Made by a program: the position numbers and the translations under genes. 64,000 nucleotides of DNA from Candidatus Poribacteria bacterium (GTDB lineage: Bacteria > Poribacteria > WGA-4E > PCPOR2b). The DNA is taken from positions 736,001-800,000 of the forward strand of contig OZ244587.1 in the NCBI GenBank assembly GCA_965218095.1. The letters run 5' to 3'. Below the pieces are notes generated by a model. It was not told the origin of the DNA. It did not search any database and saw only the letters and a list, made by a program, of their open reading frames with translations. Below, piece after piece: positions 2,764-32,788 of the stretch. How positions within the stretch are numbered: position 1 is the first letter of the stretch; each line of letters begins with the position of its first letter.

Positions 2764-4743
2764 CTAATTGCGTTCCGAAATTTGCAAACGCCAATTGAAA
2801 AGACCGACGACCAGGACGACAATCAATGCCAGCAGTTGCAGCCCGGTTAAACTCGCACCGGATTTGGTGAAAAAGAAAATCATCGCTGCAACAAACAGTG
2901 TCGCCCGTTTCCAAAAACCGAGCGGCGCAAACAAATGACCAGAGATACTCGCAGCCAGGGGGATAATTCCAAAGGCGGTGATCAGGACGTTTACCGCTAC
3001 AGCGACAAAACCAGCGGCGCCCCCATCCGGGGATAAGAATAATAATTCTGGTCGCAAAACAAAGGCGTAAGGCAAAGCAAACCCCACCAACGCGAAACGG
3101 AAGGCGGCGAATCCGGTTTGCATGATGCCGGTGCCCGCAATAGCGCCCGCCGTATAAGCCGCCAGAGCTACTGGCGGAGTCACCATCGACATCATGCCGA
3201 AATAAAAGATAAAGAGATGGGCGGCGAGAGGTACCAGGCCCAAATCACCCAGAACGGGTCCAACTAATGTCGCCATGAGCAGGTAACACACCGACGACGG
3301 TAATCCCATCCCAAGGATGATTGTCGAAATCATCAAGAAGACCAGTGCAAAAATCAGGTTGTCTTGGGCGAGCAGCAAAAGGGTTCCTGGTAACTTCGTA
3401 CCGACCCCTGTCAGGGTGACCACGCCAAGGATCAAACCCACGCATGAAGCTGCCGCAATTAGCGAAACGCCGCCATGAGCAGTCTTTTCCATCGCCTCCA
3501 AAACACCGCGGGGGCCAACGCGGGTTTGCTTGCTAAAGGCACTCAGAATCAGGATTAAAAGCAAGCTCAAACTAACTGCTCGAAACGGCGTGTAACCGAG
3601 CGCCAAAAAAAGGATGAGCGTGGCGAATGCAGCAAAAAAGATGAATCCCCCGCTACGCCCATCCCGATTCTCGGGATGGGCGCTTCGCTCGGCTTGCACC
3701 GCTGGCGGGATTGCGGTTTCACCTTCTTTGGCGCCTTCGGTCAATGCGTCCACACGACGGGCGTAGAAATGAACGATCAAGAGAAGCGCTGTGTAATAGA
3801 GAACCGCAGGAATCAGCGCGGCTTTGATAATTTCCAAATAGGTGACAGCTGGCTGGATGAGCTCCAGCATCATGTAGGCCCCTGCCCCCATGATGGGTGG
3901 GACCAGCGCCCCGCCTGAACTAGCTGCGGCTTCAACGCCGGCGGCAATGGTCGGTTTGAATCCGGCGCCTCGCATCATGGGGATGGTAAAGGTACCGGTG
4001 GTAGCTGTGTTAGCCACGGCGCTGCCGGAAAGCGACCCCATCATGCCACTGCTGATGACGGCGACCTTAGCGGGGCCACCGGCGCTCGAGCGAAACAAAC
4101 GTCTCGCGAAGCTGATGGTATAGCCAGTTGCTCCTGTTTTTTCTAGCAATGTTCCAAACAGGACGAAGAGAAACACATAGGTGAACATCACCTTTAAGGC
4201 AATGCCAAACACACCCTGGCTATGCAGAAAGGTTTGGCTGACAATCCGTTGCCAGGAGTAACCCCTGTGAGGGAATAGCCAGTCTGGCATTAACGGTCCC
4301 AAAGCCGCGTAAGCTAAAAAGGCAAGAGACAGGACGCAAAGGGTCAAGCCGATAGCGCGACGTGTCGCTTCCAAAACCAGGAACAGCCCCAACAGTCCCA
4401 CGACGTAGTCCCACGATTGCTCCATGCCCGCCCGATTCCCAAGGGGCTGACCACCAAGCCAGAACGTTTCAAACATAGGCTCCGTTTGGATCAGGATATA
4501 ACCAAAGCAGATCGCCGCGGCGATAGCCAAAACGAAATCCAAAACATGGAAAACAACCTTTTCCTCAAGCCGACGGTGGATGGGGTATTTGAGAAAAACT
4601 AAGATCAAGCCCAGCATGGCGAAAATCGCCAATTGGGATTGGGGCGAAAGCCGGGGATAATTGACCTCGATCAAAATAAACAAGCTGAGAATCGCCGTGA
4701 GCGTCCGAAAAATGATTTGCCCAATCCGTTGGAGGATGTTCAT
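2764..4743 (-). CDS. TRAP transporter fused 4TM/12TM permease (TAXI-associated)
   Basis: GGPAKVAVISSGMMGSLSGSAVAN, EAAASSGGALVPPIMGAGAY, LGMGLP, VTPPVALAAY; ATG overlaps the TGA of the upstream gene. Confidence 0.93.
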   Translation of the reverse strand: MNILQRIGQIIFRTLTAILSLFILIEVNYPRLSPQSQLAIFAMLGLILVFLKYPIHRRLEEKVVFHVLDFVLAIAAAICFGYILIQTEPMFETFWLGGQPLGNRAGMEQSWDYVVGLLGLFLVLEATRRAIGLTLCVLSLAFLAYAALGPLMPDWLFPHRGYSWQRIVSQTFLHSQGVFGIALKVMFTYVFLFVLFGTLLEKTGATGYTISFARRLFRSSAGGPAKVAVISSGMMGSLSGSAVANTATTGTFTIPMMRGAGFKPTIAAGVEAAASSGGALVPPIMGAGAYMMLELIQPAVTYLEIIKAALIPAVLYYTALLLIVHFYARRVDALTEGAKEGETAIPPAVQAERSAHPENRDGRSGGFIFFAAFATLILFLALGYTPFRAVSLSLLLILILSAFSKQTRVGPRGVLEAMEKTAHGGVSLIAAASCVGLILGVVTLTGVGTKLPGTLLLLAQDNLIFALVFLMISTIILGMGLPSSVCYLLMATLVGPVLGDLGLVPLAAHLFIFYFGMMSMVTPPVALAAYTAGAIAGTGIMQTGFAAFRFALVGFALPYAFVLRPELLFLSPDGGAAGFVAVAVNVLITAFGIIPLAASISGHLFAPLGFWKRATLFVAAMIFFFTKSGASLTGLQLLALIVVLVVGLFNWRLQISERN

Positions 4744-5786
4744 TTCTGAGGCCAAATCCCAATTTCCTTGTAATAGCGAACCGCACCGGGATGGAACGGC
4801 GTACCGGTGTCCTTAACGACGTTTTGGGGGTTGATTGCCTTACCCGCAGGGTGTCTCTTCACGACCTCAACGCGGTGTTCGTAGAGGATTTTGGTGAAGC
4901 GGTAAACCTCTTCCGCGTCCATGTTTGCGGCGGAGATCAGGTGCATGGCGCCGACATTCATGCCATGGAAGGGCTCGTCTTGATCCCGATAGGTTCCCGC
5001 AGGAATAGTAGCAGCGTTAAAAAACGGGTAGTTTTCAAACAGACGCTGTTTCGCCGCGTCATCAAAGGGGATGAAAAAGATGTTCTGGGACGCGGAGGCT
5101 TGGGTAATTGATGCCGTGGGGACCGCACCACCCAGGAAAGCGGCGGCGGCAGAACCATCAGCCAGCATGTCAACAGCACCAGCCTGAGTGTTGTGGAGCG
5201 GCGTAAAATCCTGGTAGGTCACGCCGTGTGCCGCCAGAATCGGTTCCAGGAAGTACTTGAACCCTGCGCCGGCGGGCCCAACCACCACACGCTTGCCCTT
5301 TAGATCCGCAATCTTCTTTACACCGGAAGATTTTTTTGTGATAAAAAGGGCGACGTTCAGCGCAAGGGTCATCACTGTGCGCACAGGGTGTTCCCGCTTC
5401 CACGCCCCCTCGCCGCGAACGGCGAAATAGGAGATGGCGGCGTTGGCGAGGGCGAACTCCAATTCACCGCTGATCAGACGCCGGATATTTTCCTGCGTGC
5501 CTTTGGTTGCTTCGGCAGAAACTTTCCAGTTCAGGTCACCCACATTCTCGCTGACGACTTGCGCAATGGTACCGCCAACCACAAAAAACGCCCCACCTGG
5601 CGGCGCCGTTCCAACACTGAGGAATTGACGTTTTCCCCTTTTTTTCTCCGGGTTGCCGCTTGCGTTGGATAGAGTCAAACATAACGTGGCGAGAAGCGCC
5701 AGAATTATAAAAAAACCTCGCAGACACGGTATGCAGGGGTTAAAGCCCCACACTAATAGCTGTCTGCCTTTTTCAGTTGAATCCAT
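4740..5786 (-). CDS. TAXI-family TRAP solute-binding protein
   Basis: GTAPPGGAFF, EATKGTQENI, DLKGKRVVVGPAGAG, PFHPGAVRYYKEIG; start placed at ATG after AAAGGAG. Confidence 0.92.
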   Translation of the reverse strand: MDSTEKGRQLLVWGFNPCIPCLRGFFIILALLATLCLTLSNASGNPEKKRGKRQFLSVGTAPPGGAFFVVGGTIAQVVSENVGDLNWKVSAEATKGTQENIRRLISGELEFALANAAISYFAVRGEGAWKREHPVRTVMTLALNVALFITKKSSGVKKIADLKGKRVVVGPAGAGFKYFLEPILAAHGVTYQDFTPLHNTQAGAVDMLADGSAAAAFLGGAVPTASITQASASQNIFFIPFDDAAKQRLFENYPFFNAATIPAGTYRDQDEPFHGMNVGAMHLISAANMDAEEVYRFTKILYEHRVEVVKRHPAGKAINPQNVVKDTGTPFHPGAVRYYKEIGIWPQK

Positions 5787-5805
5787 GAATATGCTCCTTT
5801 CAAAT

Positions 5806-6060
5806 TCAGTCCACGCTCCAGAGGGCAAACATCGCAGCATCTTTGATCAGAATCTGTTTTCCCAGAACAACCAGATGCGCCCAGGTCGGACTATCAGCGA
5901 CCGAACACTGCGCGATCGGCTCAAATTTTCGCGCTTCTCTTAACGATGATCAACCCGGCATCAGTCGTCAGAAGGAACAACGCTTCTCCGGCACTGAGGA
6001 TCGCATCGCGGTTCTGTCCTCGCCACTGCGGCCATTCCCCGCTGCGCGGGATTTCGCTAC
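5806..6060 (-). pseudogene. Internally deleted PQQ-like beta-propeller gene remnant
   Basis: GEWPQWRGQNRDA joined directly to ILSAGEALFLLTTDAGLIIVKRSAK, frameshift, then FEPIAQCSVADSPTWAHLVVLGKQILIKDAAMFALWSVD*. Confidence 0.75.
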
Positions 6061-6071: not shown

Positions 6072-7334
6072 TTACAAATTCATTTCCTCCGGAAGCGGAC
6101 ACATTTGACTCAAGGGCCCAAAGATTCCACTGACATCTTTCCTATAAATATTGCCGCTGAGTATGTCAACGATTCCCTGCTGGCACTCCGGGAACCGTTT
6201 CAAGAATCTGGCAAAACTGAAGTCCCTCGTATAAAAGGCATATACCAGTTTACGAATGGCTTCCATTCCCGGCACAAATTCAGGTCCGAAACACCCCAAT
6301 TGCTCGCCTGAAAAATCTCCCTTTGCAAAAGCTTCATTGATGGCATCCGCTGCCATCTCGCCGGATTTGAGTGCGAGAAACAGTCCGGAGGAATAGACGG
6401 GATCTAAAAATCCAAAAGCATCCCCGACGAGCACCCAACCATCTCCGGCAATTTGACTGGCTCGATAGGAGAAATCTTTGGTGACTTTAACCGGGAAGAC
6501 CTGCTTTGCATTTGCGAGTCGCGGTTTCAAGGCAGGGCACTTTTCGAGTTCATCATCAAAAATCTGCTGGTGGGAGAGTGATTTGCGGTTCTGTATTAGA
6601 TAATCGATTGAAGCGACTACACCCACGCTCACGCGATTATAGGGAAGTGGGATGTACCAGAACCACGAATCCTTATTCTCGGTGTGGAGAATTAATGTCG
6701 CGCCCTCGTCAATGCCTTCATCCCGAACCCCGCCCGCAAAGTGTGTAAAAATCGAAGCCTTTTTCAGGTTAGGCTCCGTTGTGTTTATTTTCAACTTCCG
6801 CGAAATCAGGGCGCTTTGCCCCGTCGAATCCACGATGATTTTTGCCGGGAATTCTTTTATATTTCCGTCCGAAAGCTTTGCCCGGACACCAACCGCTTTT
6901 TCACCTCCAAACAACACCTCGTGAACACTGACCCCTCGTTGCACTTCCGCCCCTTTTTCCTGAGCATTTTCGAGCAGCATCTGGTCAAACTCGCTGCGAA
7001 GCACTTGCCAGGTCACAGAACGCTCATGGGGGTCACTTTGGTAAAAATAGAACGGCGAGGACGCTCTTCCAGAACCAGAATAAAACTGGACGCTGTATTT
7101 TTTGGGGAAATGACTGGCTTTCAGTTTTTCCAGAACGCCCAGCCGCTTAAATGTCCAATAAGTCGCCGGCATCAGCGATTCGCCGATCTTAAACCGGGAG
7201 GATTTATCGCGTTCCAGAAGCAGGATCCGATGTCCCTTCTCTGCGACTAATGCGGCGGTGGTGCTGCCCCCAGGCCCACCACCGATGACGATTACGTCGT
7301 AGTTGTTATTTTGAGGAAAGTTTAGTTTTTTCAT
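6072..7334 (-). CDS. Flavin-dependent halogenase-like FAD oxidoreductase
   Basis: GGGPGG, KIGESLMP, Lys in HFPKKY, RSEFDQML, WFWYIP (WxWxIP), GDAFGFLDPVYSSG. Confidence 0.8.
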   Translation of the reverse strand: MKKLNFPQNNNYDVIVIGGGPGGSTTAALVAEKGHRILLLERDKSSRFKIGESLMPATYWTFKRLGVLEKLKASHFPKKYSVQFYSGSGRASSPFYFYQSDPHERSVTWQVLRSEFDQMLLENAQEKGAEVQRGVSVHEVLFGGEKAVGVRAKLSDGNIKEFPAKIIVDSTGQSALISRKLKINTTEPNLKKASIFTHFAGGVRDEGIDEGATLILHTENKDSWFWYIPLPYNRVSVGVVASIDYLIQNRKSLSHQQIFDDELEKCPALKPRLANAKQVFPVKVTKDFSYRASQIAGDGWVLVGDAFGFLDPVYSSGLFLALKSGEMAADAINEAFAKGDFSGEQLGCFGPEFVPGMEAIRKLVYAFYTRDFSFARFLKRFPECQQGIVDILSGNIYRKDVSGIFGPLSQMCPLPEEMNL

Positions 7335-7525: not shown

Positions 7526-8845
7526 TCACTCACTTATCACGTTTCCATTGAGACGACGATAGTCCGTCAACCGCCGTGCCTTCAACTCAAAGCGAGGCAA
7601 CGTCCCATGAACCACCGGCTTCACATCCACACGTAGTCCCAAGGCATCCCGAATCGCTCTAGTGACGGCAGCGGCAATCCTGTCAGATTCAGCGTTGCTA
7701 ACCTCCAGCCGAATCTCCATTTCATCGAGCACCTGCCGGCGATAAACGTCCACCGCAAACTCGCCTACTTCGGGGAAACGGCGGACGATGTTTTCAATGG
7801 CGCTAGGATAGACATTTACGCCGCGTATAATCAGTGCGTCGTCGATTCGTCCGATGACGCCGCCTTCCAAACGCCAAAATGTACGACCGCATTCGCACGG
7901 TTCGGTTTGCAGCTTGACCTGATCGCCGGTGCGGTAGCGGATCACTGGCATGCCAACCCGGCGGAGATTGGTGATAACCAGCTCGCCTTCTTCGGCTGGC
8001 TCACCCGTGGCAGGATTGATGACCTCGCAAATGAATTCACCCTCGTTCAGATGAACGCCCGCCTGTGCCTGACACTCAAACCCCCACGCCCCCACTTCGG
8101 TCGCGCCGGCATGATCGTAACACTTTGCCCTCCACGCGCTTTCGATCCGATGTTTCGTCCCCGGCAGGCTAGCCCCCGGCTCACCAGCGTGAATGGTGAT
8201 GCGAACGTTGGTGTTCGCAATGTCAATCCCCTCCGCTTCGGCGACCTCAGCAAGGCGTAACGCATAAGTCGGCGTACAGATCAAAGTCGAGATGTCATTG
8301 AACCGGATTGCTCTCAGTCGCTGAAGGGAGGTCATCCCGCCGCCCGGAATGGACAGTGCGCCAATGTGGCGAGCCCCTTCGTGGGCGCTCCAGAAGCCGA
8401 TAAACGGACCGAAGGAAAAGGCGAAGAAGATCCGATCGCCCGAGGTCACACTGGCCGCACGATACACCGCCCCCCAGCAGCACGCCCACCAATTCCAACT
8501 CTCCTCGGTATCCAGCCAGCGTAACGGTTCGCCGGTCGTACCAGAGGTTTGATGGATGCGGATGTACCGCTCGCAGGGAAAGGTGAGATTGGTACCATAG
8601 GGTGGGTGAGCTGTCTGATCAGTAGAAAGCTCCTCTTTGGTGGTAAAGGGCGCCTGTCGGTAATCTTCAAGTGTTCGCACATCCTCCGGATGCTTCACCC
8701 CCGCTTCGCCCAGCTTTCGCTGATAGAAGGGGTTGGTCTGCAACACCGGGGAAAGCATCATCTGCAATTTCTTTAATTGGATCTGCGTTAGTGCTTCTCG
8801 CCCCAGCGTTTCAATGCAAGGGTCAAAGTAACTTATTGTCTCCAT
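7526..8845 (-). CDS. Phenylacetate-CoA ligase (PaaK)-family aryl-CoA ligase
   Basis: HQTSGTTGEP, TPTYAL, AGEPG, GATEVG, RYRTGD, GRIDDALIIRGVNVYPSAIE. Confidence 0.88.
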   Translation of the reverse strand: METISYFDPCIETLGREALTQIQLKKLQMMLSPVLQTNPFYQRKLGEAGVKHPEDVRTLEDYRQAPFTTKEELSTDQTAHPPYGTNLTFPCERYIRIHQTSGTTGEPLRWLDTEESWNWWACCWGAVYRAASVTSGDRIFFAFSFGPFIGFWSAHEGARHIGALSIPGGGMTSLQRLRAIRFNDISTLICTPTYALRLAEVAEAEGIDIANTNVRITIHAGEPGASLPGTKHRIESAWRAKCYDHAGATEVGAWGFECQAQAGVHLNEGEFICEVINPATGEPAEEGELVITNLRRVGMPVIRYRTGDQVKLQTEPCECGRTFWRLEGGVIGRIDDALIIRGVNVYPSAIENIVRRFPEVGEFAVDVYRRQVLDEMEIRLEVSNAESDRIAAAVTRAIRDALGLRVDVKPVVHGTLPRFELKARRLTDYRRLNGNVISE

Positions 8846-8862
8846 GTGCGTAAAACTGAAAT

Positions 8863-8891
8863 GGAGAGGCACGGTACGCCATGCCCCTACA
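8863..8891. repeat. GTAG-type REP-like palindrome
   Basis: Minus strand GTAGGGGCATGGCGTACCGTGCCTCT, imperfect hairpin preceded by GTAG. Confidence 0.5.
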
Positions 8892-8904: not shown

Positions 8905-9393
8905 TTAGGGATTTTCATTTATTCGCTCAGACGTTGCTAGAGGGCGGGTCATCTCAAAGGTCCCCGTGTATTTTCGGCTGGTATAGAAACCGACGAATTT
9001 TTCTTCAGTCGCTCGGCCAATCCAGTCGTAGGTGCCGCCATCCTGTTTGCCGAGATCGGCGCTGCCTTTGAACAAGACAACCTCCCCGACCCGCCGACCA
9101 GGCATCTGAATCGTATACTTATAGGGACGACCACATTCGCCCTCAAATGTCGCTTCCCATTTATCGGGACTTAACGCCACCACACGACAATCCAGACGCT
9201 GCTGATAATTTTGTGGGGCGCCTGAGACTCCCCAAGTTCCAACCCAATCGCCGCTGATGCGGGGTTGTTCAGCCTGCTGGTATACTAGCTGGGTTTGGCT
9301 GATTTGCGAGGATTTATCTGAGTGGCTACATCCCACACCGAAAATTACGCCTGAAAGCAATACGGCTACTGCTGAAAGTGTGCTAAAACGCAT
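8905..9393 (-). CDS. Hypothetical lipoprotein
   Basis: AAGGAGG RBS; signal peptide ending FGVG-C; beta-rich mature part. Confidence 0.75.
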   Translation of the reverse strand: MRFSTLSAVAVLLSGVIFGVGCSHSDKSSQISQTQLVYQQAEQPRISGDWVGTWGVSGAPQNYQQRLDCRVVALSPDKWEATFEGECGRPYKYTIQMPGRRVGEVVLFKGSADLGKQDGGTYDWIGRATEEKFVGFYTSRKYTGTFEMTRPLATSERINENP

Positions 9394-9407
9394 TTTATCA
9401 AACCTCC

Positions 9408-9480
9408 TTGCGTCAAATGTGAAACGTGATGTGTGGTGCAATTGACGCTTGTCAATTGCAGATTGCAGATTACTGATTTT
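9408..9480. repeat. Degenerate heptamer array plus perfect palindrome TGCAATTGAC-N4-GTCAATTGCA
   Basis: Minus strand caccaca catcacg tttcaca tttgacg directly before the RBS; palindrome at 9437-9460. Confidence 0.6.
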
Positions 9481-10758: not shown

Positions 10759-10892
10759 TGTTGAAACTTCCTGATGTGAAATGAAAAGCGTAAAACGTGG
10801 TGCGTGAAACATAATTTAGTACAACCAATAAGCCCATGTTTCAGTGGATTCACATTAGTCAACAAAATGGTTGCCACATCTGGTCGGCCCCT

Positions 10893-11525
10893 CTAAGACC
10901 ACATACGCGCTGATTCATCAAACGGGAACTTTTCATTAATCAGCATCATTGGCTGTCCGTCGGCGATGATACGATACATGCGACTGATAAACATCTCATC
11001 CGCCAGATGCCCGATAGCGGGTGGCAATTCCCTGGCGTGTTCCAGCCCATACCACAGCAGTTCACGCCGGGTCTCTACCCGGCTGCGGCGCAAGAGATCG
11101 CCTAGCCCCTCGTCATCAACCTCCAAACCCTGTTTAATCACCTCTGGAAGCCGGTCCGACACAATGAGGGACATCGCGTATACATAGAGAGTAGACTTGC
11201 CTTGCAGTAGCACCTGACGGGCAATCACAGCGGTTCCTTCAGGCGCTTCAAGCCAGACGTGATCGGTGGATAGGCGTTGCGTCTCCTGGTTGAGCCGGAC
11301 AATTTCTACCGGCTCCATTGTGTAAGCTTCGATGAATTGTGTCACCGTGCCATCAATGACCAGCAAAGCACGCTGAAATGGAGTAAGCGTCCTCAGATCA
11401 ATCGCATCCAGGTACGCCGGTTTAGCAAATTGAGCGACAAAAAGATCTCTCATCTGTTTGCTGGTAAGATAGCTTGGATTAAGACGGGATGAGGTTACCT
11501 CGCCTGTACAGGTATTCGAATTCAT
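10893..11525 (-). CDS. Chorismate pyruvate-lyase family (DUF98/Rv2949c-like 4-hydroxybenzoate synthase)
   Basis: LTPFQRALLVIDGTVTQFIEAY, RQVLL, YAMSLI, GLGDLL..SRVETRRELL, SRMYRII, INEKFP. Confidence 0.8.
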   Translation of the reverse strand: MNSNTCTGEVTSSRLNPSYLTSKQMRDLFVAQFAKPAYLDAIDLRTLTPFQRALLVIDGTVTQFIEAYTMEPVEIVRLNQETQRLSTDHVWLEAPEGTAVIARQVLLQGKSTLYVYAMSLIVSDRLPEVIKQGLEVDDEGLGDLLRRSRVETRRELLWYGLEHARELPPAIGHLADEMFISRMYRIIADGQPMMLINEKFPFDESARMWS

Positions 11526-25420: not shown

Positions 25421-25786
25421 TTAGGCCAGTCGCCACGATTCAACATTCTTCAGGATTTCAGCAGACCGATGGAGAGTGAACGCCTCCGTTTCCAGAATGC
25501 ACCGATTGATTTTCAGGTAATTTTCGTTCTCAAGCAACTTCCAAAGGGGTTTTGAGTATTCGATGAAAGCGTGCTTGACACGAGTCTCCCCACGTTTCAA
25601 GTTGCCCTCCGGATCGAGTACCTGACCGACAGAATCCTTCAATTCCTCCACATAATCTGGAGACAACATATTTTTTACAACAGCGAAACCGTGTGCATCA
25701 TGACAAGCCTTAATCGCCGAAAGTTCGTCCGGTGCAAACTCATATTGATATGGTAAATTGACAGGCTGAAAGTTATTGTTGGACAT
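25421..25786 (-). pseudogene. Truncated phytanoyl-CoA dioxygenase (PhyH)-family gene
   Basis: GAGGAG RBS; HDAHGFAVVKNMLSPDYVEELK N-terminal motif; ends at 121 aa before any HxD iron motif. Confidence 0.65.
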
Positions 25787-25879: not shown

Positions 25880-27331
25880 TTACTGCATAGCAATCGCAAA
25901 GAGCGTATTCCGACTTGCAATATACAGTACACCGTTTTTTGCTACCGGGGTGGTATAAACCGCACTCCCCATATTGGTCTCATAGATTAGTTCTTTCTTT
26001 TTGCCTGCTTTTAAGATGGCAACATCTCCGTCCTCGTCTCCGATGTACACCTTGCCATCCGCCACGAATGTTGACCCCCAAATCGCAGCAAATGTGTCAT
26101 ACGTCCAATGATGCTCACCCGTGTTGGCATCAAGGCAGTAGACGAAACCGCTCAAGTCTGCCACGTAGAGCAGATCATCGGCAATTGCGACAGTGGACAT
26201 CGCGCGATGGAAATCTTCGTCGCCTCGATGCCAGACGGCCCCGGTCTCGGTGATGTCTCCTTCACCCGTTGCGTCAATTGCCCAGAGATGGCCGATTCCC
26301 TCCCCATGTTCCGGGTCCTGTCCCACGCTGATGTAAACCTTATCCTCCCAAATGACAGGTGTCGAAATAATGTTATTGCGTGTACCTCGGCCGCCCAGCT
26401 CCCAAACGGAATCTTTGGGATTACAGTCAAATTTCCAGATTAGTGTTCCTGTCTCAGGTTCGAGGGAATAGATCCAGCCGTCGCCGCCGGGAAAGATGAC
26501 TTGGGGTTTGCCGTTGATTACCCCGTAGGCGGGGTTAGACCATTGACCGTGTAAGATATTTTCGGCAGGAGAGGCATCTTCCCAAACCAGTTCGCCGGTC
26601 GTTTTATTGAGTGCGATAAAGCTCGGCGCAAAAGGGGAAGGAATGTGAACGTGCCCTTCGTCGACACCGTTGCTCGTTTCCACAAAGAGCAAATCACCAA
26701 CACCGACTGGGGAACAGGTGGCGAGATTGTGGGGAAAAACCTCCAATTCTTCGATCATATCATACTTCCAGATGATGTCTCCATCAATTTCGCTGGTGTC
26801 GGTCTCCTCCTTGAAGGGTCCATCATTTTCACCGTCCATGAAGCCTTCGGTATCTACGCAAACAATTTCAGCGCGGTTGGAAATATAATAGAGCCGATCG
26901 TCCTCGATAAAAGGCGTTGAACAGATACCCTGTTGAGGCCAATCGTTGACGCGTCCGGCGGGGAGTTTAGTATGTGTGGATTGCCAGAGAAATTCCCCGT
27001 CCGACTCGCGGAACGCCATAATAACGCCGCGGTCACCAGTAAGTTTCGGATTTCGCATCCCTTGGTTGTTCGTGCCGACAAACACCTTACCGCCGATGAG
27101 AACGGGACCCGCATAGGTCTGCGACCCCAAGGTTGCTGTCCATTTGATGTTTAATCCGGTTTCTGTGTCCCATTTTTCCGGCAGATTTTTTTCATCGGAG
27201 ACCAAGTTGCGCGATGGTGTGAAACCCCACATCGCTGTCTCAGCGGCGACGGGTGTTACCGATACTATCAAAACCGTTAAGAGAATAATGTAAAAGATAG
27301 CACCTGTTTCTAGAATCTGTTGATGTCTCAT
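25880..27331 (-). CDS. Secreted PQQ-like beta-propeller protein (acidic subfamily)
   Basis: Signal peptide, WGFTPSRN, LGSQTYAGP, VGTNN, DWPQQGICSTP, HGQWSNP, GQDPEHGEG. Confidence 0.85.
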   Translation of the reverse strand: MRHQQILETGAIFYIILLTVLIVSVTPVAAETAMWGFTPSRNLVSDEKNLPEKWDTETGLNIKWTATLGSQTYAGPVLIGGKVFVGTNNQGMRNPKLTGDRGVIMAFRESDGEFLWQSTHTKLPAGRVNDWPQQGICSTPFIEDDRLYYISNRAEIVCVDTEGFMDGENDGPFKEETDTSEIDGDIIWKYDMIEELEVFPHNLATCSPVGVGDLLFVETSNGVDEGHVHIPSPFAPSFIALNKTTGELVWEDASPAENILHGQWSNPAYGVINGKPQVIFPGGDGWIYSLEPETGTLIWKFDCNPKDSVWELGGRGTRNNIISTPVIWEDKVYISVGQDPEHGEGIGHLWAIDATGEGDITETGAVWHRGDEDFHRAMSTVAIADDLLYVADLSGFVYCLDANTGEHHWTYDTFAAIWGSTFVADGKVYIGDEDGDVAILKAGKKKELIYETNMGSAVYTTPVAKNGVLYIASRNTLFAIAMQ

Positions 27332-29377: not shown

Positions 29378-29385
29378 GATTTTCC

Positions 29386-31596
29386 TCAATTCCCCCAAAC
29401 CTTCAGATTATCATAATAGATCTCAGCCGGCGAATAGCCGTAGATGCCCGGACTCCCTTCCCGATTCGGCAGCGGATCTTCGACTATAATCGTCCATTCA
29501 TCCGGTTCCGGCTCACCTCTGACCCAAACCTTTCCCTTGACGTGCGCCGTGTCATCAACAATATCCACCGTCATTTTCATGGTGTACCAGACATTCGGCT
29601 CCCACTTGAAATCAACCCACTTTGCCATTCGGAGATCTGATCGCCACGAAAGCACCTGAAGCCGTTGGTAATTGCCTTGCATCTCAAGTGTGTAGCGGTG
29701 AGCGATGAGTCCCATGTCCGGAAGGTTTCGCTTCGGCTTCGTTCCCAGCAAATCGACTTGGAGGGTATAATTTTGTATGTTCGGGGGACCGATGTAAACG
29801 TTGGAGCGGTGCAATCCGCGGCGGGCGGGCGGTTTGACGAGAATTTTGTTCCCATCCATTTGACGGACGACAAATCGGTTTGTTGCACGGACCCAATGCG
29901 GCGGACTCTTCCCCTCCTCTATCGACTCAAAATCTTCGTGCCACGGCAATTGTGGAATAACTCGGACTCGTGCGGAGTTGCTTAAATCGCCAATCTTCGC
30001 CGATACTGTTCCTGCTTGACCGGGGCGACTCGGTTCAAGAATCAACTTTCCGTTGTCATCAATAGTCCCTGACAATCCATTGAGTGACCACTCAGCAGCC
30101 TTTTCGCCAATCAGTGCACCTTTATTGTCAAAAGCACGAACGCTAAATTGGAGGCTGTCCCCCGATTGGACTAGAACTTCGGTGGGTACAATCTGTATTG
30201 ATGCAGGAGCAGAAGTAGACATCGCCACAGTGCTGGGTGCTGATACAGGAACAGGCTGGGTTGAGGTGGAAGACCCCTGAACCCCTAAGCAGTAAAGCCC
30301 TTCCTCAGTGGTAAAGTAAACTCGACCGTTAGCGATGGCAGGTGAACCGTAGATCTCCGCATAGCGACCGGATTCCCTTTCAATCTGTACTGTGTTAAGC
30401 GTTTTACACTCGTTCTCACCCGGCTGCAGGATGTGGAAGTGACCATTGACTTCCGTGACATAGATTTTTCCGTCAGCGACAACAGGGGACCCTTTACCCA
30501 CTGTGCCGAGGCTATGTGTCCAATGAGCCTCCCCGGTTTTGCCGTTGAGACAGTGTAAATTCGCCGAACTGTCCACAACATAAAGCCGGCCATCGTCCAG
30601 CGCTGGAGAACTATAACCCGCCTCTATGCCGTCAACTCGCCAGACCTCATGCGATTTTGTAATATCGCCCGTGCCAGTTCCATCAATGCAGACGACGCGC
30701 CCCATCACTGTCGTGTCCGTGTTCTCCTGATTGTGACTTGCGTAAACCCGTGTGCCATCTACGACCACTGACGCATTGAGAGCCCCTTGACTGACCCGGA
30801 AGCCCCAGACTTTTTCACCGGTTCGCACATCCATCGCGTACACATAACCATCTGCATTACCGTCGATTAACAGCCGGCGCCCGTGGATCTCGGCGACGAC
30901 AGCCACTGGATATGTTGTATTCTTCGGGGGGCCACCGGGTGTTGTGGGCCAAACCACATCTCCCGTGCGTTTGTCGAACGCAAAATAACGATGTCGCATC
31001 GCGGCGTGACTGCCCCAACTGGTGTTAAGAAAACTGAGGATCACAAGGTTTCCATCGACAACAGGTGTAACAACTCGCCCACCATAGCCCGTGAACCGAC
31101 CAAATTCTTCTGTCAAAGAACGCGACCAAACAACCTGCCCGTCCTTATCGAAACAGGCAAACACGCCGCTAATGGTGTGGGCATAGATATAACCCGTTTC
31201 CCTATCTCCCGCCAGACTTGTCCAACCCAGTCGATTAAAAGGGATTGTGCTGTGAAAGACATTGAATCGGTGTTCCCAGAGCAGACTCCCCGTTTCGGCA
31301 TCAAAGCAGGCAACCCGTTCCTGCTCAGTGATGTCCATCCCAACCCGCCCGATGACATAGACTCGATTGTTCAAAACGATTGGTGTGGAACGACCGATAA
31401 AGTCTACCTTCCAAATTAAGTTCTCGCCATCCACAGACCAGTTCGAGATTAAACCGGTTTGTGAAGACGCGCCATTCTGATTCGGTCCTCGCCAACTTGG
31501 CCAATCCCGAGCCAGCGCGTTGTCGAAGCCAACACTCAGAATGAATAGCACATAAAGAAAAGTACAGGTTGTTTTAAAAGTAATCTGAGACCGCAT
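29386..31596 (-). CDS. Large secreted PQQ-like beta-propeller protein with Ig-like and ConA-like C-terminal domains
   Basis: Signal peptide, WPSWRGPNQNG, propeller repeats, S/T/P linker, LPWHEDFE...WYTMKM...KGKVW.RGEPEP..WT...GSPGIYG...YYDNLKV. Confidence 0.85.
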   Translation of the reverse strand: MRSQITFKTTCTFLYVLFILSVGFDNALARDWPSWRGPNQNGASSQTGLISNWSVDGENLIWKVDFIGRSTPIVLNNRVYVIGRVGMDITEQERVACFDAETGSLLWEHRFNVFHSTIPFNRLGWTSLAGDRETGYIYAHTISGVFACFDKDGQVVWSRSLTEEFGRFTGYGGRVVTPVVDGNLVILSFLNTSWGSHAAMRHRYFAFDKRTGDVVWPTTPGGPPKNTTYPVAVVAEIHGRRLLIDGNADGYVYAMDVRTGEKVWGFRVSQGALNASVVVDGTRVYASHNQENTDTTVMGRVVCIDGTGTGDITKSHEVWRVDGIEAGYSSPALDDGRLYVVDSSANLHCLNGKTGEAHWTHSLGTVGKGSPVVADGKIYVTEVNGHFHILQPGENECKTLNTVQIERESGRYAEIYGSPAIANGRVYFTTEEGLYCLGVQGSSTSTQPVPVSAPSTVAMSTSAPASIQIVPTEVLVQSGDSLQFSVRAFDNKGALIGEKAAEWSLNGLSGTIDDNGKLILEPSRPGQAGTVSAKIGDLSNSARVRVIPQLPWHEDFESIEEGKSPPHWVRATNRFVVRQMDGNKILVKPPARRGLHRSNVYIGPPNIQNYTLQVDLLGTKPKRNLPDMGLIAHRYTLEMQGNYQRLQVLSWRSDLRMAKWVDFKWEPNVWYTMKMTVDIVDDTAHVKGKVWVRGEPEPDEWTIIVEDPLPNREGSPGIYGYSPAEIYYDNLKVWGN

Positions 31597-31960
31597 GTAA
31601 ATCTCCTATATTTTTTCTTTTGGTATATGTTGTAAGAGCATAGTTAAAGACGTGAGAATTGTCTTGAAGTTTAACGAAGCCTTAGTCAAGGTCTAGATCG
31701 AAATCGCTGTTGGCCGCATCCGCAAGCACCGCCCTCCGTTGAGTCGAATAAACACATTTTATGGGAAGTTAGAGGTTGAAGTCAATCAAAAAATTGGGCA
31801 GATTGCTGGATTTTGGCAATCCCAACGACGAGAGTGATAAGCGCACCAGCCCAGTGTTAACGAAAAATTGAAGAAAACCACAGAATAGGGGAGACAGAAA
31901 CGAGATTATGTTGTAAAATATGATGGGGACACAGAAAGACATTCAACTTTAACGGAAGGG

Positions 31961-32788
31961 TTGCAGCGTATGCAAACGCGAAAACTGAACAGCACTTCAT
32001 CTTTGATACATCGTTGGCAGCCGTATCAGGAGATCTTCAAACTGACAATTAAACGGATGCTCTGGAGCCGGAAGACAATGCTTGCGGTTCTTGTAAGCAT
32101 GGTACCCGTAGGCATCTCAATCGTCTTCCGCCTTGTGCACCATAGCGCGGGGGATGCCTGCGAGTTTACACCGCATCTGACGATGATATTCTATCTGATG
32201 TTCGTGACCATTCTTATCGCACTCCTTTTCGGCACGGCGATTATCGCCGACGAAGTTGACAACAAAACATTGACTTACCTTGTCACCCGTCCGCTCCGCA
32301 AAGCCCGCATCCTGTTAAGTAAGTTTGCTGCCTATTTGGTTGGGACGATTATGCTTGTTGCCTCATCTCACCTCCTGACAACGCTGATCGTTACAACTGA
32401 CCCCAAGATCGGGGAGAACTTGCTGTTTCATATCGGGATGAGTTTCAAATATATCGGCGTAATCGGCTTGGGATTACTGGCTTACGGGGCGATTTTTGCT
32501 GCCTTTGGGGCGCGATTTAAGCATGCGGTGCTTTGGGGCTTGCTCGTTGCATTCGGTTGGGAGAAGATTACGCTTGTCGTGCCGGGAAATATCAAGAAAC
32601 TCTCCGTCATCCACTATTTGCTTTCCATTTATCCCCGTCACAGTTTATCCGCTCGTATGATTCAAGGATTTGTCGGCGATTCTCCCGCTTCCCCCTGGCT
32701 AGCATTCGTTATGATTGTGCTGATTACAGCTTTATTTCTGAATCTCTCGATCTGGATATTTCAGCGGCGTGAGTATCATACAGATTGA
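31961..32788 (+). CDS. ABC-2 type transporter permease
   Basis: Six hydrophobic segments; IADEVDNKTLTYLVTRPLRK..ILLSKF. Confidence 0.85.
   Translation: MQRMQTRKLNSTSSLIHRWQPYQEIFKLTIKRMLWSRKTMLAVLVSMVPVGISIVFRLVHHSAGDACEFTPHLTMIFYLMFVTILIALLFGTAIIADEVDNKTLTYLVTRPLRKARILLSKFAAYLVGTIMLVASSHLLTTLIVTTDPKIGENLLFHIGMSFKYIGVIGLGLLAYGAIFAAFGARFKHAVLWGLLVAFGWEKITLVVPGNIKKLSVIHYLLSIYPRHSLSARMIQGFVGDSPASPWLAFVMIVLITALFLNLSIWIFQRREYHTD

Follow-up and report, generated by a model that had tools for sequence, protein, structure and literature searches.

The 64-kb window (the whole stretch of DNA analysed), from a probable Poribacteria genome, was found to carry a run of 22 minus-strand genes, best explained as the form that a widely conserved operon takes in this lineage. 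This operon may direct a trans-envelope small-molecule pathway, probably biosynthetic, built on a two-component carboxylate reductase; the explanation as a whole is given slightly less than even odds (about 0.45).

Gene content of the window

The 22 ORFs span positions 2764–31596, with spacing between neighbours of −125 to 351 nt and overlap in three pairs. Families were assigned by Pfam, NCBIfam and PDB sequence searches and are listed in the direction of transcription.

29386..31596, minus: PQQ_E, 736 aa, first gene of the operon (Pfam PQQ_2, 113 bits)
28148-29398, minus: AAA_21 ATPase (PADLOC HEC-01A, 169 bits)
27371-28126, minus: DUF4276 protein (PADLOC HEC-01B, 20.8 bits)
25880..27331, minus: PQQ_D, secreted eight-bladed BamB-like propeller (PQQ_2, 93.8 bits)
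25421..25786, minus: N-terminal fragment (121 aa) of a truncated PhyH-like dioxygenase
24308..25396, minus: EhpF-like adenylating enzyme of the ANL superfamily, at 362 aa similar in length to EhpF (PDB match)
22205..23956, minus: ThDP enzyme, benzoylformate-decarboxylase-like (three TPP_enzyme domains)
20663..22096, minus: predicted EhpG-like ALDH-fold thioester reductase (Aldedh, 46.7 bits)
19659..20405, minus: creatininase-family amidohydrolase (Creatininase, 213 bits)
18492..19601, minus: iron-containing alcohol dehydrogenase, FeADH (Fe-ADH, 151 bits; ADH_Fe_C, 123 bits)
17369..18616, minus: PQQ_C, secreted PQQ_2 propeller (Beta-prop_ACSF4, 223 bits; PQQ_2, 137 bits)
16016..17362, minus: HemN-like radical SAM enzyme (Radical_SAM and HemN_C domains)
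14312..15952, minus: double propeller of the YWTD type, LDL-receptor class B (11 Ldl_recept_b repeats, 296 bits)
12896..14170, minus: PQQ_B, secreted PQQ_2 propeller (PQQ_2, 114 bits; signal-like N-terminus)
11532-12779, minus: Kelch propeller (Kelch_1, 237 bits)
10893..11525, minus: chorismate pyruvate-lyase-like protein (Rv2949c-like, 72.6 bits)
9490..10812, minus: PQQ_A, secreted PQQ_2 propeller (PQQ_2, 117 bits; signal-like N-terminus)
8905..9441, minus: putative lipoprotein, 178 aa (lipobox-like GVGC)
7526..8872, minus: PaaK-like aryl/acyl-CoA ligase (AMP-binding_C_2, 68.6 bits)
6072..7334, minus: flavin-dependent halogenase (PDB halogenase matches)
2764..5840, minus: TAXI-TRAP importer, made up of a binding protein (4740-5840) and a fused permease (2764-4755)
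31961-32788, plus: ABC-2 permease, outside the minus-strand run

All families named in the preliminary description, from the TAXI-TRAP importer to the EhpF-like ligase, were recovered by these searches; the Kelch and YWTD propellers, the HEC-01-like pair and the truncated PhyH gene had not been mentioned there. The run of co-oriented, overlapping genes that it reported holds for the 22 genes above but not for the ABC-2 permease, which has no counterpart in any of the 80 related loci described below and is lineage-specific or unrelated to the pathway. Its five intact PQQ_2 propellers were likewise found, but a single PQQ remnant instead of two, namely a PQQ_A/B-like segment of 54–59 aa (12639-12815) fused with the Kelch ORF at its 5' end (whole 11532..12815) and 76% identical by tblastn to residues 202–255 of PQQ_A. 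As had also been stated, PKS, NRPS, phz and pqq families are all missing from the scanned ORFs (at least 100 aa in 1–36 kb, at least 150 aa in 36–64 kb), and inspection by eye of the ATG-started ORFs of at least 35 aa in eight gaps disclosed no carrier-protein candidate.

The conserved core and its spread

A search of species-representative genomes with the ALDH-like gene found at least 599 relatives of it, and the 80 best-scoring loci were kept and viewed over 10 kb on each side. Neighbours were counted on the same strand, denominators comprise only loci with enough flank, and phylum labels are those of the submitters. A collinear core, PQQ_E-PQQ_D-EhpF-ALDH-FeADH-PQQ_C-HemN(-PQQ_B), recurs in this subset, complete with seven genes in 19/80 loci and with at least five in 35/80, and the conservation of its order across phyla exceeds chance. 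These loci are labelled Poribacteria, Latescibacterota, Gemmatimonadota, Acidobacteriota and Planctomycetota; as the same order occurs in at least five phyla, the operon looks like a widespread pathway. The EhpF/ALDH/Fe-ADH/HemN/propeller neighbourhood had earlier been suggested for Planctomycetota and Acidobacteriota; it was indeed located in a locus labelled Planctomycetota (L044) and in Acidobacteriota-labelled loci, and Latescibacterota, Gemmatimonadota and Poribacteria have it too, so that an objection from lack of synteny fails. The ALDH tree tracks the phylum labels, with 8 changes where shuffled labels gave 29.2 on average.

Orthologues have a median identity of 50–75% overall, and of 50–74% for the propellers, to the proteins of the window, while the propeller paralogues within the window share 20–26%, except PQQ_A and PQQ_B (58%). 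The EhpF-like gene is present in 59/66 loci (median identity 75%), PQQ_D in 40/60 (74%, the best-conserved propeller of the cluster), PQQ_C in 34/65 (55%) and the HemN-like enzyme in 33/60. Relative to the ALDH gene, PQQ_E is found upstream in 33/55 loci (56%) and FeADH directly downstream in 39/73 (59%); PQQ_B lies downstream of HemN in 17/55.

The preliminary description took the whole of about 29 kb as one pathway. This stands for the core but not for the ThDP enzyme (2/66 loci), creatininase (4/73), Kelch (2/49), YWTD (0/49) and chorismate lyase genes (0/49 on the operon strand, with a 47–48% relative on the opposite strand in two loci), which are lineage-specific (0–4 loci each), nor for the ABC-2 permease. 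The ThDP gene is an insertion of this kind, separating EhpF from the ALDH-like gene. The AAA_21/DUF4276 pair (27371-29398), which matches the PADLOC candidate defence system HEC-01 and occurs in only 2/80 loci (L001 and L002), is an inserted defence-like module outside the pathway. The PhyH remnant itself has no Pfam match; it shares 81% identity with the beginning of a 291-aa L001 ORF that does match Pfam PhyH (54.9 bits). The 178-aa lipoprotein has no Pfam or NCBIfam match and one relative, in L003, where PQQ_A, a paralogue of PQQ_B, has a 68% orthologue.

Both TAXI-TRAP components exceed their NCBIfam cut-offs (TRAP_TAXI 262 bits, TRAP_fused 538 bits). Among the 80 loci the pair occurs elsewhere only in L031 (Acidobacteria bacterium Mor1), where PQQ_E follows it directly; here it takes the place of an SSF symporter that follows the halogenase in L024, L047, L050 and L053. 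Further neighbours in relatives are a GT4 glycosyltransferase (24/71), a TonB-dependent receptor (15/51; siderophore-receptor model 237.6 bits, cut-off 223.5), a LolD-like ABC ATPase (10/49) and, with it, a duplicated FtsX permease (8/49). The importers, TonB-dependent receptor, GT4 and MacB-type ABC genes of the relatives' clusters were not part of the preliminary description.

Reductase pair, accessory enzymes and propellers

By sequence, ligase and ALDH-fold protein are homologous to the EhpF/EhpG pair. The former matches EhpF (PDB 3HGU/3L2K) over residues 20–362 (E 1.2e-43), and the latter shares 26% identity (E 2e-40) with the product of the ALDH gene adjoining ehpF in a phenazine cluster, named ehpG (PMC11278526). 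The ALDH-fold protein has more than 8000 homologues at E ≤ 1e-10, a number set by the limit of the search. The general-base Glu, previously reported missing, is indeed replaced, by His252, while Cys288 is retained; the motifs HGPGxS and GG[RA]SC are kept in 75/80 and 77/80 orthologues. The two proteins are predicted to bind each other, as supported by a complex model scoring 0.70 against 0.00 for the best of three controls, with at least 93% of contacts agreeing between runs and partner pLDDT of at least 87. The 0.70 mark was reached by 116/157 solved complexes and 2/215 mismatched pairs, counts that hold only roughly here because our own alignments were used. Rare fusions in the protein database (1–3 members per cluster) join EhpF-ALDH, EhpF-ALDH-FeADH, PQQ-EhpF and SSF-EhpF, and on a haloarchaeal plasmid the EhpF/ALDH pair adjoins an SSF symporter.

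The HemN-like enzyme carries CxxxCxxC at residue 69, kept in 33/34 orthologues, and matches HemN (E 5.6e-33) and NocN (E 1.6e-26) in the PDB, while falling under every cut-off in the NCBIfam scan. The halogenase (14/49 loci) matches 8ZOP (E 5.4e-62), CndH, PltA, Mpy16 and Bmp2; it has GxGxxG at residue 18 and WxWxIP at 224, and a Lys that aligns with the Lys of the two halogenases matching it best (8ZOP and 3E1T). WxWxIP and the Lys are each kept in 15/15 orthologues, as are all three motifs together. The PaaK-like ligase occurs in 8/49 loci, each time beside the halogenase region (NCBIfam PaaK 265 bits, cut-off 700; FlxY 189; BagE/FevW 117). NCBIfam scores were also below cut-off for the ThDP enzyme (benzoylformate decarboxylase, 198 bits against 493) and the creatininase-family protein (MftE, 122 against 172).

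The four core propeller genes each form an orthologous family of their own, and the N-termini of their products are signal-like, from which export of the propellers is predicted. PQQ_E combines an N-terminal PQQ_2/BamB-like propeller with a C-terminal Ig-like/concanavalin-A-like beta-sandwich module (model pLDDT 92.1), whose Foldseek PDB matches are all weak (TM 0.4–0.6) and by description include lectins, ERGIC-53 and Big_2-CBM56; in one Poribacteria group the module is a separate 306-aa gene. The AF2 model of PQQ_D (pLDDT 82.9, pTM 0.84) has an N-terminal helix at residues 3–23, and residues invariant in 23 sequences include H201, H227, H261, H342, E176, E341 and C137. The PQQ_C ORF has a hydrophobic stretch after an internal Met, and translation probably begins at the in-frame ATG at 18508. 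The N-terminus of the YWTD propeller ends in a lipobox-like SGC, and the protein is likely a lipoprotein. The suggestion that the propellers use the pathway's product as a cofactor or ligand gained no direct support. They are BamB-like and score far under the cut-offs of the NCBIfam models for PQQ dehydrogenases, and the top Foldseek matches of PQQ_D are BamB (TM about 0.8 on target). BamB is known as a scaffold rather than an enzyme.

Proposed pathway and comparison with known systems

The operon would span the cell envelope and act on one small carboxylic acid, imported by a secondary carboxylate importer (SSF in relatives, TAXI-TRAP here), which the relatives' TonB-dependent receptor would join. 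EhpF would adenylate the carboxylate and the acyl group would pass to Cys288 of the ALDH-fold partner; as this lacks the water-activating Glu, NAD(P)H reduction with release of an aldehyde is expected in place of thioester hydrolysis. Fe-ADH would give the alcohol, and the HemN-like enzyme may alter the carbon skeleton, either C-methylating it or decarboxylating it oxidatively. In many lineages, including that of the window, the PaaK-like ligase would activate and the halogenase halogenate an aryl acid, with the chorismate lyase and ThDP decarboxylase as putative extra feeders here. The GT4 and LolD/MacB-type ABC system of relatives would glycosylate and export the product, and the secreted propellers, one bearing a lectin-like module, may bind or process it in the periplasm. 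The earlier scheme of activation, reduction, methylation and halogenation is consistent with these families, given the EhpF/EhpG homology and the three-motif halogenase.

A biosynthetic or tailoring role is favoured over catabolism. The halogenase points this way, as do the GT4, the LolD/FtsX system and the siderophore-type TonB receptor of relatives, and the product is possibly an aryl alcohol carrying halogen or methyl groups, or a glycoside of it, perhaps metallophore-like. On the other side, three importer types are among the recurring transporters (TonB receptor, SSF and TAXI-TRAP), a set that uptake would explain at least as well as biosynthesis. Two further points weigh against the favoured role: transporters, carrier proteins and assembly enzymes are all missing from the invariable core, and specialised metabolism does not usually show median identities of 55–75% to the window's proteins in loci of several phyla, or a spread over at least 599 genomes at species level.

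Other observations count against the trans-envelope pathway as drawn. The 64-kb window itself lacks the TonB receptor, GT4 and LolD/MacB-type ABC genes; in one Poribacteria group sulfatase and M19 dipeptidase genes follow the ALDH gene, replacing FeADH/HemN; Blastocatellia-type loci retain only EhpF-ALDH-GT4-ABC-FtsX-PQQ; and PQQ_D most resembles BamB. An aromatic substrate is suggested by accessory genes only, and since the halogenase and PaaK-like ligase are accessory, 'aryl' may not describe the substrate of the core.

Among known systems, a LuxC-LuxE complex has been reported as solved (PMC9157457), and the EhpF/ALDH complex score may thus reflect likeness to it. No characterised pathway covering the gene set was found in the literature, in line with the earlier view of it as a candidate undescribed pathway. 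A 2026 preprint notes PQQ-rich clusters from sponge Latescibacterota, Poribacteria and Acidobacteriota, treated there as orphan BGCs with no MIBiG match and without characterisation, in which PQQ-like, TonB, rSAM, GT and TA genes accompany a halogenase and an adenylase.

Gene content of the operon

The minus strand of the window carries 22 ORFs between 2764 and 31596, all co-oriented and separated by -125 to 351 nt, with overlaps in three pairs. Gene families were called from Pfam, NCBIfam and PDB evidence, and the genes are given below in order of transcription, PQQ_A to PQQ_E being the five secreted PQQ_2/BamB-like propellers.

Genes of the operon and the adjoining permease gene (window coordinates, strand, product)
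29386-31596, minus, PQQ_E, secreted propeller, first in transcription order
27371-29398, minus, AAA_21 ATPase and DUF4276 protein, HEC-01-like pair
25880-27331, minus, PQQ_D
25421-25786, minus, PhyH-like dioxygenase remnant, 121 aa
24308-25396, minus, EhpF-like ligase, 362 aa
22205-23956, minus, ThDP enzyme
20663-22096, minus, ALDH-fold protein, 477 aa
19659-20405, minus, creatininase-family protein
18492-19601, minus, Fe-ADH
17369-18616, minus, PQQ_C
16016-17362, minus, HemN-like radical SAM enzyme
14312-15952, minus, YWTD propeller
12896-14170, minus, PQQ_B
11532-12779, minus, Kelch propeller
10893-11525, minus, chorismate-lyase-like protein
9490-10812, minus, PQQ_A
8905-9441, minus, putative lipoprotein, 178 aa
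7526-8872, minus, PaaK-like ligase
6072-7334, minus, flavin-dependent halogenase
2764-5840, minus, TAXI binding protein and fused TRAP permease
31961-32788, opposite strand to the operon, ABC-2 permease

The preliminary description of this region was largely right and needed correction in several details. The PQQ-like propellers it reported were found; two further propellers proved to be of the Kelch and YWTD types and not PQQ-like. Two PQQ remnants had been claimed and one was found (12639-12815). This PQQ_A/B-like fragment of 54-59 aa, joined in frame to the 5' end of the Kelch ORF, is 76% identical to PQQ_A residues 202-255. The AAA_21/DUF4276 genes and the truncated 121-aa ORF are additions to that description, and the ABC-2 permease, listed there with the cluster genes, lies on the other strand. 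Its statement that PKS, NRPS, phz and pqq genes are lacking was borne out by Pfam and NCBIfam searches, in which none of these families was seen among the window ORFs, the PhzA/B, PhzF, PhzD/E and PhzG families included. Neither an NRPS nor an NIS synthetase family is present in the window, and a TonB-dependent siderophore receptor occurs only in relatives. ATG-started ORFs of the intergenic gaps were judged by eye for a carrier protein or precursor peptide, and none was convincing.

Signal-like or lipoprotein-like N-termini are present in PQQ_A, PQQ_B, PQQ_D, PQQ_E, the YWTD protein and the 178-aa protein, and in PQQ_C an internal Met, probably the true start, precedes a hydrophobic stretch. 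The best sigma-70-like site was at 31785-31756, just 5' of PQQ_E, and terminator-like sites (12) were fewer than in shuffled sequences (mean 19), both being consensus matches only. Rfam at gathering thresholds, applied to the window and four loci, gave no riboswitch or other ligand-naming RNA.

Directly 3' of the TRAP permease gene and on the same strand lie a PrpD gene at 1075-2517 (2-methylcitrate dehydratase; its 867 bits exceed the equivalog cut-off) and, at 3-1037, an arylsulfatase-like gene; distant sulfatases excepted, these have no cluster-adjacent counterpart in the 80 related loci described below. The window from 36 to 64 kb holds housekeeping genes, among them those for ATP synthase, FolD, an SDR and Mrp/Nuo-type subunits. 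The ATP synthase genes are split (47452-57732), with beta (47452-48861) about 4 kb from gamma (52805-53683); between them are a DJC28_CD-domain ORF (50035-50508) and a 591-aa protein (50593-52368) containing dockerin and Cu2-monooxygenase C-terminal domains. Two large minus-strand ORFs, 38918-40927 and 41256-43235 (669 and 659 aa), match no Pfam family at E <= 1e-5. The G+C content is 0.40 at 58001-60000 against about 0.50 elsewhere, and this segment includes a 206-aa ORF (58210-58830) with no Pfam match.

Conservation and variation of the cluster

One genome per GTDB species was scanned with an alignment of 15 ALDH-like homologues (A1), and at least 599 relatives of the ALDH-like gene were found in these species-representative genomes. 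The best 80 of these loci, cited below by L numbers such as L001, were taken together with flanks of up to 10 kb, and genes were counted by tblastn with the window's proteins and seven proteins from the loci (at least 50% query cover, E <= 1e-15). The counts include only same-strand genes and loci with enough flank.

Occurrence of cluster genes in the best-scoring related loci
EhpF, 59/66
PQQ_D, 40/60
PQQ_E, 33/55
FeADH, 39/73
PQQ_C, 34/65
HemN, 33/60
PQQ_B, 17/55
TonB-dependent receptor (TBDR), 15/51
halogenase, 14/49
GT4, 24/71; 15/49 with full flank
ABC ATPase, 10/49
duplicated FtsX permease, 8/49
PaaK, 8/49
SSF, 6/49 downstream and 3/60 upstream
creatininase, 4/73
ThDP, 2/66
Kelch, 2/49
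chorismate lyase, 0/49
YWTD, 0/49
TAXI, 1/53

The gene order is constant, PQQ_E-PQQ_D-(SSF)-EhpF-ALDH-FeADH-PQQ_C-HemN-(PQQ_B)-TBDR-(PaaK)-halogenase-(SSF)-GT4-ABC-FtsX, and the numbers for GT4, ABC and FtsX are probably too low because in full-type loci these genes fall beyond the fetched 10 kb. The TonB receptor, GT4 and ABC genes were not seen within the window. All seven core genes (PQQ_E, PQQ_D, EhpF, ALDH, FeADH, PQQ_C and HemN) are complete in 19 of the 80 best loci, which by submitters' labels are seven Latescibacterota, three Acidobacteriota, two Poribacteria, one Planctomycetota and six unlabelled; at least five core genes are present in 35 of the 80, and in 4/4 Gemmatimonadota loci. 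The cluster is real and its core is conserved. Similar neighbourhoods had been mentioned for Planctomycetota and Acidobacteriota in the preliminary description, and the occurrence of the full core in one and three such loci, together with the repetition of the core order in loci of several phyla, confirmed the expected synteny. At least one PQQ-like gene is found in 62/80 loci, and several of the remaining 18 are contigs of less than 7 kb.

A quick maximum-likelihood tree was built for the ALDH-like proteins of the window and 67 loci, leaving out rows with a called length outside 440-530 aa or with the gene lost to shadow ORFs (high-GC loci). It tracks the phylum labels, which change 8 times on it compared with a mean of 29.2 when shuffled, and it groups the window with Poribacteria; the closest named ALDH-like relatives are Candidatus Poribacteria, at 82% identity. 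Poribacteria form two clades matching two architectures. The full type follows the order from PQQ_E through FtsX. A group of Poribacteria displays a second arrangement, PQQ_E (~450 aa)-306-aa protein-PQQ_D-EhpF-233-aa Vgb-lyase-like protein-ALDH, with sulfatase and M19 dipeptidase genes downstream, in which the C-terminal module of PQQ_E is encoded separately, as the 306-aa protein. In Blastocatellia/Pyrinomonadaceae the order is EhpF-ALDH-GT4-(small genes)-LolD-like ATPase-duplicated FtsX permease-PQQ propellers. The invariant association of all three architectures is that of EhpF/ALDH with PQQ_2 propellers. Isolate and bin names suggest that the spread of the cluster reaches soil and other non-sponge genomes. 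Three loci labelled Heliobacteriaceae/Heliomicrobium (Bacillota; L057, L072 and L074) fall inside the Acidobacteriota clade of the tree, beside a Blastocatellia sequence, and L059, labelled Patescibacteria group and left out of the tree, carries a full PQQ_E-to-HemN set; these four are likely mis-binned contigs or mislabelled MAGs.

The window's operon is the full type with lineage-specific gains and losses. It has gained the HEC-01-like pair, the genes for the ThDP enzyme, creatininase, the YWTD and Kelch propellers, chorismate lyase and PQQ_A, and that for the lipoprotein, and the PhyH gene has been cut down. What is left of the latter at 25421-25786 is an N-terminal PhyH-like remnant; its counterpart in L001 (3477-4349) has 291 aa, and about 170 codons are missing just 5' of the EhpF gene.

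Defence and selfish genes recur at operon junctions across loci. The AAA_21/DUF4276 pair (27371-29398), inserted in the window's operon, corresponds to HEC-01, a candidate defence system in PADLOC. Junctions of related loci hold a BsoBI-type restriction-modification pair (L001:5724-8132), AAA_21 and TnpB/Cas12f-like ORFs (L032:5376-6533 and 12918-13775), a DUF4143 ATPase (L028:8623-9807), 23S-rRNA-IVP proteins (L035:7985-8461 and 9570-9974) and DUF488 with a RecQ-like helicase (L006:15107-18936). It seems that the operon can absorb insertions at the borders of its fixed blocks.

Proposed reductase pair, accessory enzymes and propellers

In a phmmer search of the PDB the EhpF-like ligase matched EhpF itself (3HGU/3L2K) with an E value of 1.2e-43, residues 20-362 aligning with 21-366 of the chain. 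Homologues of EhpF adjoin ALDH-family genes on plasmids, in a phenazine cluster on an E. coli plasmid and beside an SSF symporter on a Halalkalicoccus plasmid, and both of these ALDH partners align with almost the full length of the window's ALDH-like protein (26% identity and E 2e-40 to the one adjoining ehpF; E 1e-36 to that of Halalkalicoccus). The general-base Glu, which the preliminary description had noted as missing, is replaced by His252 (IHGPGRSK, aligned with LEAGGKS of KauB), and Cys288 (GGRSC) is kept. Both residues are invariant among the 15 homologues of A1, and the motifs HGPGxS and GG[RA]SC occur in 75/80 and 77/80 ALDH orthologues, respectively. The EhpF and ALDH-like genes are adjacent in most relatives and are split in the window by the inserted ThDP gene.

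A predicted complex of the EhpF-like and ALDH-like proteins scored 0.70, the best of three controls 0.00; the runs share at least 93% of contacts and the partner pLDDT is at least 87. Of 157 solved complexes 116 attain the mark for this score, as do 2 of 215 mismatched pairs, counts that hold only roughly here because our own alignments (A1 for ALDH, A3 for EhpF) served as input, and the pass may reflect likeness to the LuxC-LuxE complex, already solved according to the accessible text of PMC9157457. The predicted interface comprises residues 15-17 and 35-46 of ALDH and 176-182, 210-217, 237-248 and 276-277 of EhpF, and many invariant columns of A1 and A3 are located there. The model supports, and does not show, that the two proteins bind each other. 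Rare fused proteins unite EhpF with ALDH, with ALDH and Fe-ADH, with a PQQ propeller or with an SSF symporter; they are weak evidence, because each cluster holds only one to three members, and some may be assembly or gene-calling artefacts.

The product of 6072-7334, described at the outset as a halogenase-like flavoprotein, carries all three halogenase motifs and by its sequence is a flavin-dependent halogenase: GxGxxG at residue 18, WxWxIP at 224 and, in FPKKYS, a Lys aligned with the Lys of 8ZOP and 3E1T (CndH). The motifs are found in 15/15 orthologues, except GxGxxG in 14/15, one match being cut short. Matches to solved halogenases range from E 5e-62 to 4e-47 and Trp_halogenase scores 93 bits, and no NCBIfam equivalog cut-off is reached (CmlS, 185 bits against 900). 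In relatives the enzyme is accessory (14/49 loci). The PaaK-like protein beside it matches AMP-binding_C_2 only, and EhpF, 17 kb off, scores 29.4 bits for AMP-binding (cut-off 29.9). The HemN-like protein has CxxxCxxC at residue 69, scores 76 bits for Radical_SAM and 32 bits for HemN_C, and matches PDB HemN with E 5.6e-33. It fits no NCBIfam subfamily, the scores being nearly equal and all below their cut-offs: HemN 186 (325), HutW 180 (400), HemW 163 (205) and STM4012 185 (380). A heme/tetrapyrrole reading was dropped, as this protein resembles HemN at least as much as ChuW/HutW.

Transporters occupy recurrent positions. Loci L044 and L054 have SSF between PQQ_D and EhpF, whereas L024, L047, L050 and L053 have it 3' of the halogenase, and the window's TAXI-TRAP genes have exactly the latter position; therefore the secondary importer looks like a functional part that was replaced non-orthologously. 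In L031 (Acidobacteria bacterium Mor1, CP011806) a TAXI-TRAP pair is placed 5' of PQQ_E. The TonB-dependent receptor of relatives is of the siderophore type (237.6 bits, cut-off 223.5). In two Blastocatellia loci SelD (selenide, water dikinase; 343 bits, above the cut-off) lies just 5' of EhpF-ALDH-GT4 (L058:7300-8259 and L062:7356-8315), and selenium chemistry is a possibility for this variant. As a main reading, with a SenB-like GT, it was dropped, SelD being found 5' of EhpF in these 2/80 loci only.

The PQQ paralogues of the window are 20-26% identical to one another, apart from PQQ_A and PQQ_B (58%), whereas positional counterparts in relatives have median identities to the window's proteins of 74% (PQQ_D), 56% (PQQ_E), 55% (PQQ_C) and 50% (PQQ_B); therefore the propellers are four distinct co-inherited families and not random paralogues. 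The corresponding medians for the enzymes are 75% (EhpF), 64% (HemN), 62% (ALDH) and 59% (FeADH). None of the five PQQ_2 proteins reaches the NCBIfam cut-offs for BamB (TIGR03300, 55-148 bits against 285), for PQQ alcohol dehydrogenase (TIGR03075, 35-91 against 480) or for the acidobacterial 'empty quinoprotein' family (33-61 against 650).

The model of PQQ_D (pLDDT 82.9, pTM 0.84) is a propeller with a low-confidence helix at residues 3-23. BamB came first in Foldseek against the PDB, with TM about 0.75-0.80 on the target and 0.59 on the query due to extra loops, followed lower down by tetrathionate hydrolase and PQQ alcohol dehydrogenases; this search returned BamB and generic propellers and gave no functional assignment. 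The ESM Atlas search with PQQ_D gave PQQ_2 clusters only, mostly of Acidobacteriota, and no new lead. Numerous His, Glu, Asp, Cys and Trp residues of the protein are invariant. In PQQ_E, the last 282 residues form beta-strand domains (pLDDT 92.1), for which Foldseek gave only weak matches (TM 0.4-0.6) that by description include Big_2-CBM56, legume lectins and ERGIC-53. This lectin-like module and the GT4 of relatives hint at a glycosylated ligand.

Proposed function of the cluster and comparison with known systems

EhpF would adenylate a carboxylate, a thioester would form on Cys288 of the ALDH-fold partner, and hydride would release the aldehyde, on which Fe-ADH would then act, taking the acid to the alcohol. 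The HemN-like radical SAM step would accompany the reductase and Fe-ADH, and the secreted propellers may act on or bind the same compound in the periplasm. We infer the acid-to-alcohol steps from homology, and we likewise infer all that is said of the compound itself. The interpretation in the preliminary description, that cytoplasmic enzymes make or remodel a small aromatic compound, is supported in part.

A biosynthetic or tailoring role of the cluster is the preferred reading, with a probability of roughly 0.45. The halogenase, the PaaK/BagE-like ligase, GT4 and the MacB-type ABC system lean to biosynthesis and export, and the importers (TonB receptor, SSF, TAXI-TRAP) lean to precursor uptake, product re-uptake or plain assimilation. 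A long-chain alcohol glycolipid, made with GT4 and a DevA-like ABC system on the model of heterocyst glycolipids, was kept only as a variant of the biosynthetic reading, as nothing shows a fatty substrate. The importers also invite an account by uptake and reductive assimilation, in which a carboxylate too large for porins would enter by the TonB receptor, be bound or trimmed by the propellers, be imported by SSF or TAXI-TRAP and be used or detoxified through reduction by EhpF/EhpG and Fe-ADH, with the halogenase, GT4 and ABC genes as add-ons. The cluster is accompanied by importers of three unrelated types (SSF, TAXI-TRAP and, in 15/51 loci, the TonB receptor), a minimal EhpF/ALDH pair comes after the SSF symporter on the haloarchaeal plasmid, and one cluster of fused proteins (P0133) joins SSF to EhpF. 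The sulfatase and M19 dipeptidase genes of one Poribacteria group, the lectin-like module on PQQ_E, weak NanM-type matches of the Kelch protein and a conservation as high as that of primary metabolism point the same way. Such an account is nonetheless rather unlikely, since spending ATP and NAD(P)H on carboxylate reduction is unusual in catabolism, flavin-dependent halogenases, GT4 and MacB-type ABC systems serve biosynthesis or export, no downstream catabolic enzymes are conserved, and many complete-looking core loci lack transporters.

The idea of a cofactor system, put forward in the preliminary description, has cytoplasmic enzymes make a redox cofactor or ligand that is exported, loaded on the PQQ-like propellers and salvaged by the TonB receptor, as PQQ is. 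The enzyme genes and four propeller families are indeed co-conserved and tightly packed, PQQ_D equals the enzymes in conservation (median 74%) and has His, Glu, Asp and Cys residues that are invariant, the window is without pqq genes, and relatives have an exporter and a TonB receptor. However, the propellers score far under the quinoprotein cut-offs (35-91 against 480 and 33-61 against 650 bits), they have 415-483 aa with BamB as the best structural match, and exporter and receptor are absent from the window and from many loci, which makes this idea improbable. Its fullest form is a shade more doubtful: a complete new periplasmic cofactor system, in which the reductase, Fe-ADH, the HemN-like enzyme and often the halogenase build a molecule for secreted BamB-like 'empty quinoprotein' propellers with TonB salvage, would be a PQQ-like solution in five phyla. 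It is very unlikely that there is no single pathway and that abundant propeller paralogues and other genes merely adjoin EhpF/EhpG as a self-contained reductase module. Much of the window's 29 kb is lineage-specific, selfish and defence genes recur at junctions, 18/80 loci have no PQQ-like gene, and the EhpF/ALDH pair also stands alone in phenazine and other contexts; yet orthologous propellers hold position and strand across phyla at 50-74% median identity, against 20-26% for paralogues, the conserved genes are all on one strand, and several of the PQQ-less loci are contigs of less than 7 kb.

The proteins of the cluster are as conserved as primary-metabolic enzymes, and many carriers belong to poorly cultured phyla, among them Poribacteria, Latescibacterota, Acidobacteriota, Gemmatimonadota and Planctomycetota. 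The cluster provides a genomic context for the very large, unexplained family of secreted PQQ_2/BamB-like propellers of these phyla. Should the product be a halogenated metabolite or metallophore, it would bear on the orphan brominated compounds of sponge holobionts; should it be a propeller cofactor, it would represent a new class of periplasmic redox chemistry. With an enzyme pair, a defined gene set and sequenced carriers such as Acidobacteria bacterium Mor1 (CP011806), the question is directly testable.

The EhpF/EhpG pair of the D-alanylgriseoluteic acid phenazine pathway (Pantoea agglomerans Eh1087) shares with the window the order of ligase and then ALDH, and both ALDH proteins keep the Cys and have GPGR for the Glu motif. 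In a structural study of EhpF the pair was reportedly proposed to reduce a phenazine carboxyl group. The accessible text of PMC11278526 names the ALDH gene adjoining ehpF ehpG, and that of PMC3175449 has EhpF-O turn phenazine-1,6-dicarboxylate into the final antibiotic. Identity to the window's proteins is about 26-35%, and the window has no phz genes; the secreted propellers, Fe-ADH and HemN-like enzyme of the window's operon are not part of the ehp cluster. The two-component EhpF/EhpG carboxylate reductase is now extended far beyond phenazine tailoring.

The LuxC-LuxE fatty acid reductase is alike in outline, an acyl-protein synthetase passing its product to the Cys of an ALDH-fold protein to give an aldehyde. 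LuxE and LuxC are similar in size to the window's proteins of 362 and 477 aa. The window had no match to Pfam LuxC or LuxE at E <= 0.001, no LuxC/LuxE chains were among the PDB sequence matches of the ligase or the ALDH at E <= 1, and luxD, luxA and luxB are absent here; so the window's pair would be an analogue in function and belongs to neither family. LuxC and LuxE form a complex, according to the text available in PMC9157457.

The window's PQQ_D shares the eight-bladed fold of BamB and PQQ-dependent dehydrogenases and is likewise exported. Differences are the extra loops of PQQ_D, the sub-cut-off scores of the propellers, the Ig-like and lectin-like module added in PQQ_E, and the location of the genes in an enzyme operon and not in a BAM context. 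The halogenase has all three motifs in common with phenol- and pyrrole-type enzymes (8ZOP, CndH, PltA, Mpy16, Bmp2). Several such halogenases act on carrier-protein-bound substrates, whereas no carrier protein gene was found in the window.

No characterised pathway of this gene composition was found in the literature searched (EhpF/EhpG, arylcarboxylate reductase, Poribacteria halogenase, PQQ-like/halogenase/TonB), in line with the initial view of a candidate undescribed pathway; one preprint only came close (bioRxiv 10.64898/2026.08.03.742642). According to its accessible parts, sponge metagenomes were mined for clusters of halogenase and adenylating enzyme by a 'Halo_AMP' rule (Trp_halogenase and AMP-binding close together). 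PQQ-like domains occurred 'at high frequency', with TonB transporters, rSAM, GT and TA genes, the best gene-level matches were BagE, Bmp2 and BrtI, and the origins included Acidobacteriota, Latescibacterota and Poribacteria. The same parts report no MIBiG match for any cluster and MIBiG clusters to be without PQQ-like domains. As described there, Halo_AMP clusters fit the PaaK/halogenase end of the window's cluster; the in-depth family CC A has a P450, in which the window differs, and those parts do not describe the EhpF/EhpG/Fe-ADH/HemN/propeller core or a spread beyond sponges. New here are the recognition of the EhpF/EhpG-FeADH-HemN-propeller core as the conserved unit, to which the halogenase is accessory, the assignment of a carboxylate importer to the cluster, and the presence of ALDH-like relatives in at least 599 species-level genomes. 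The cluster is a new combination of known parts.
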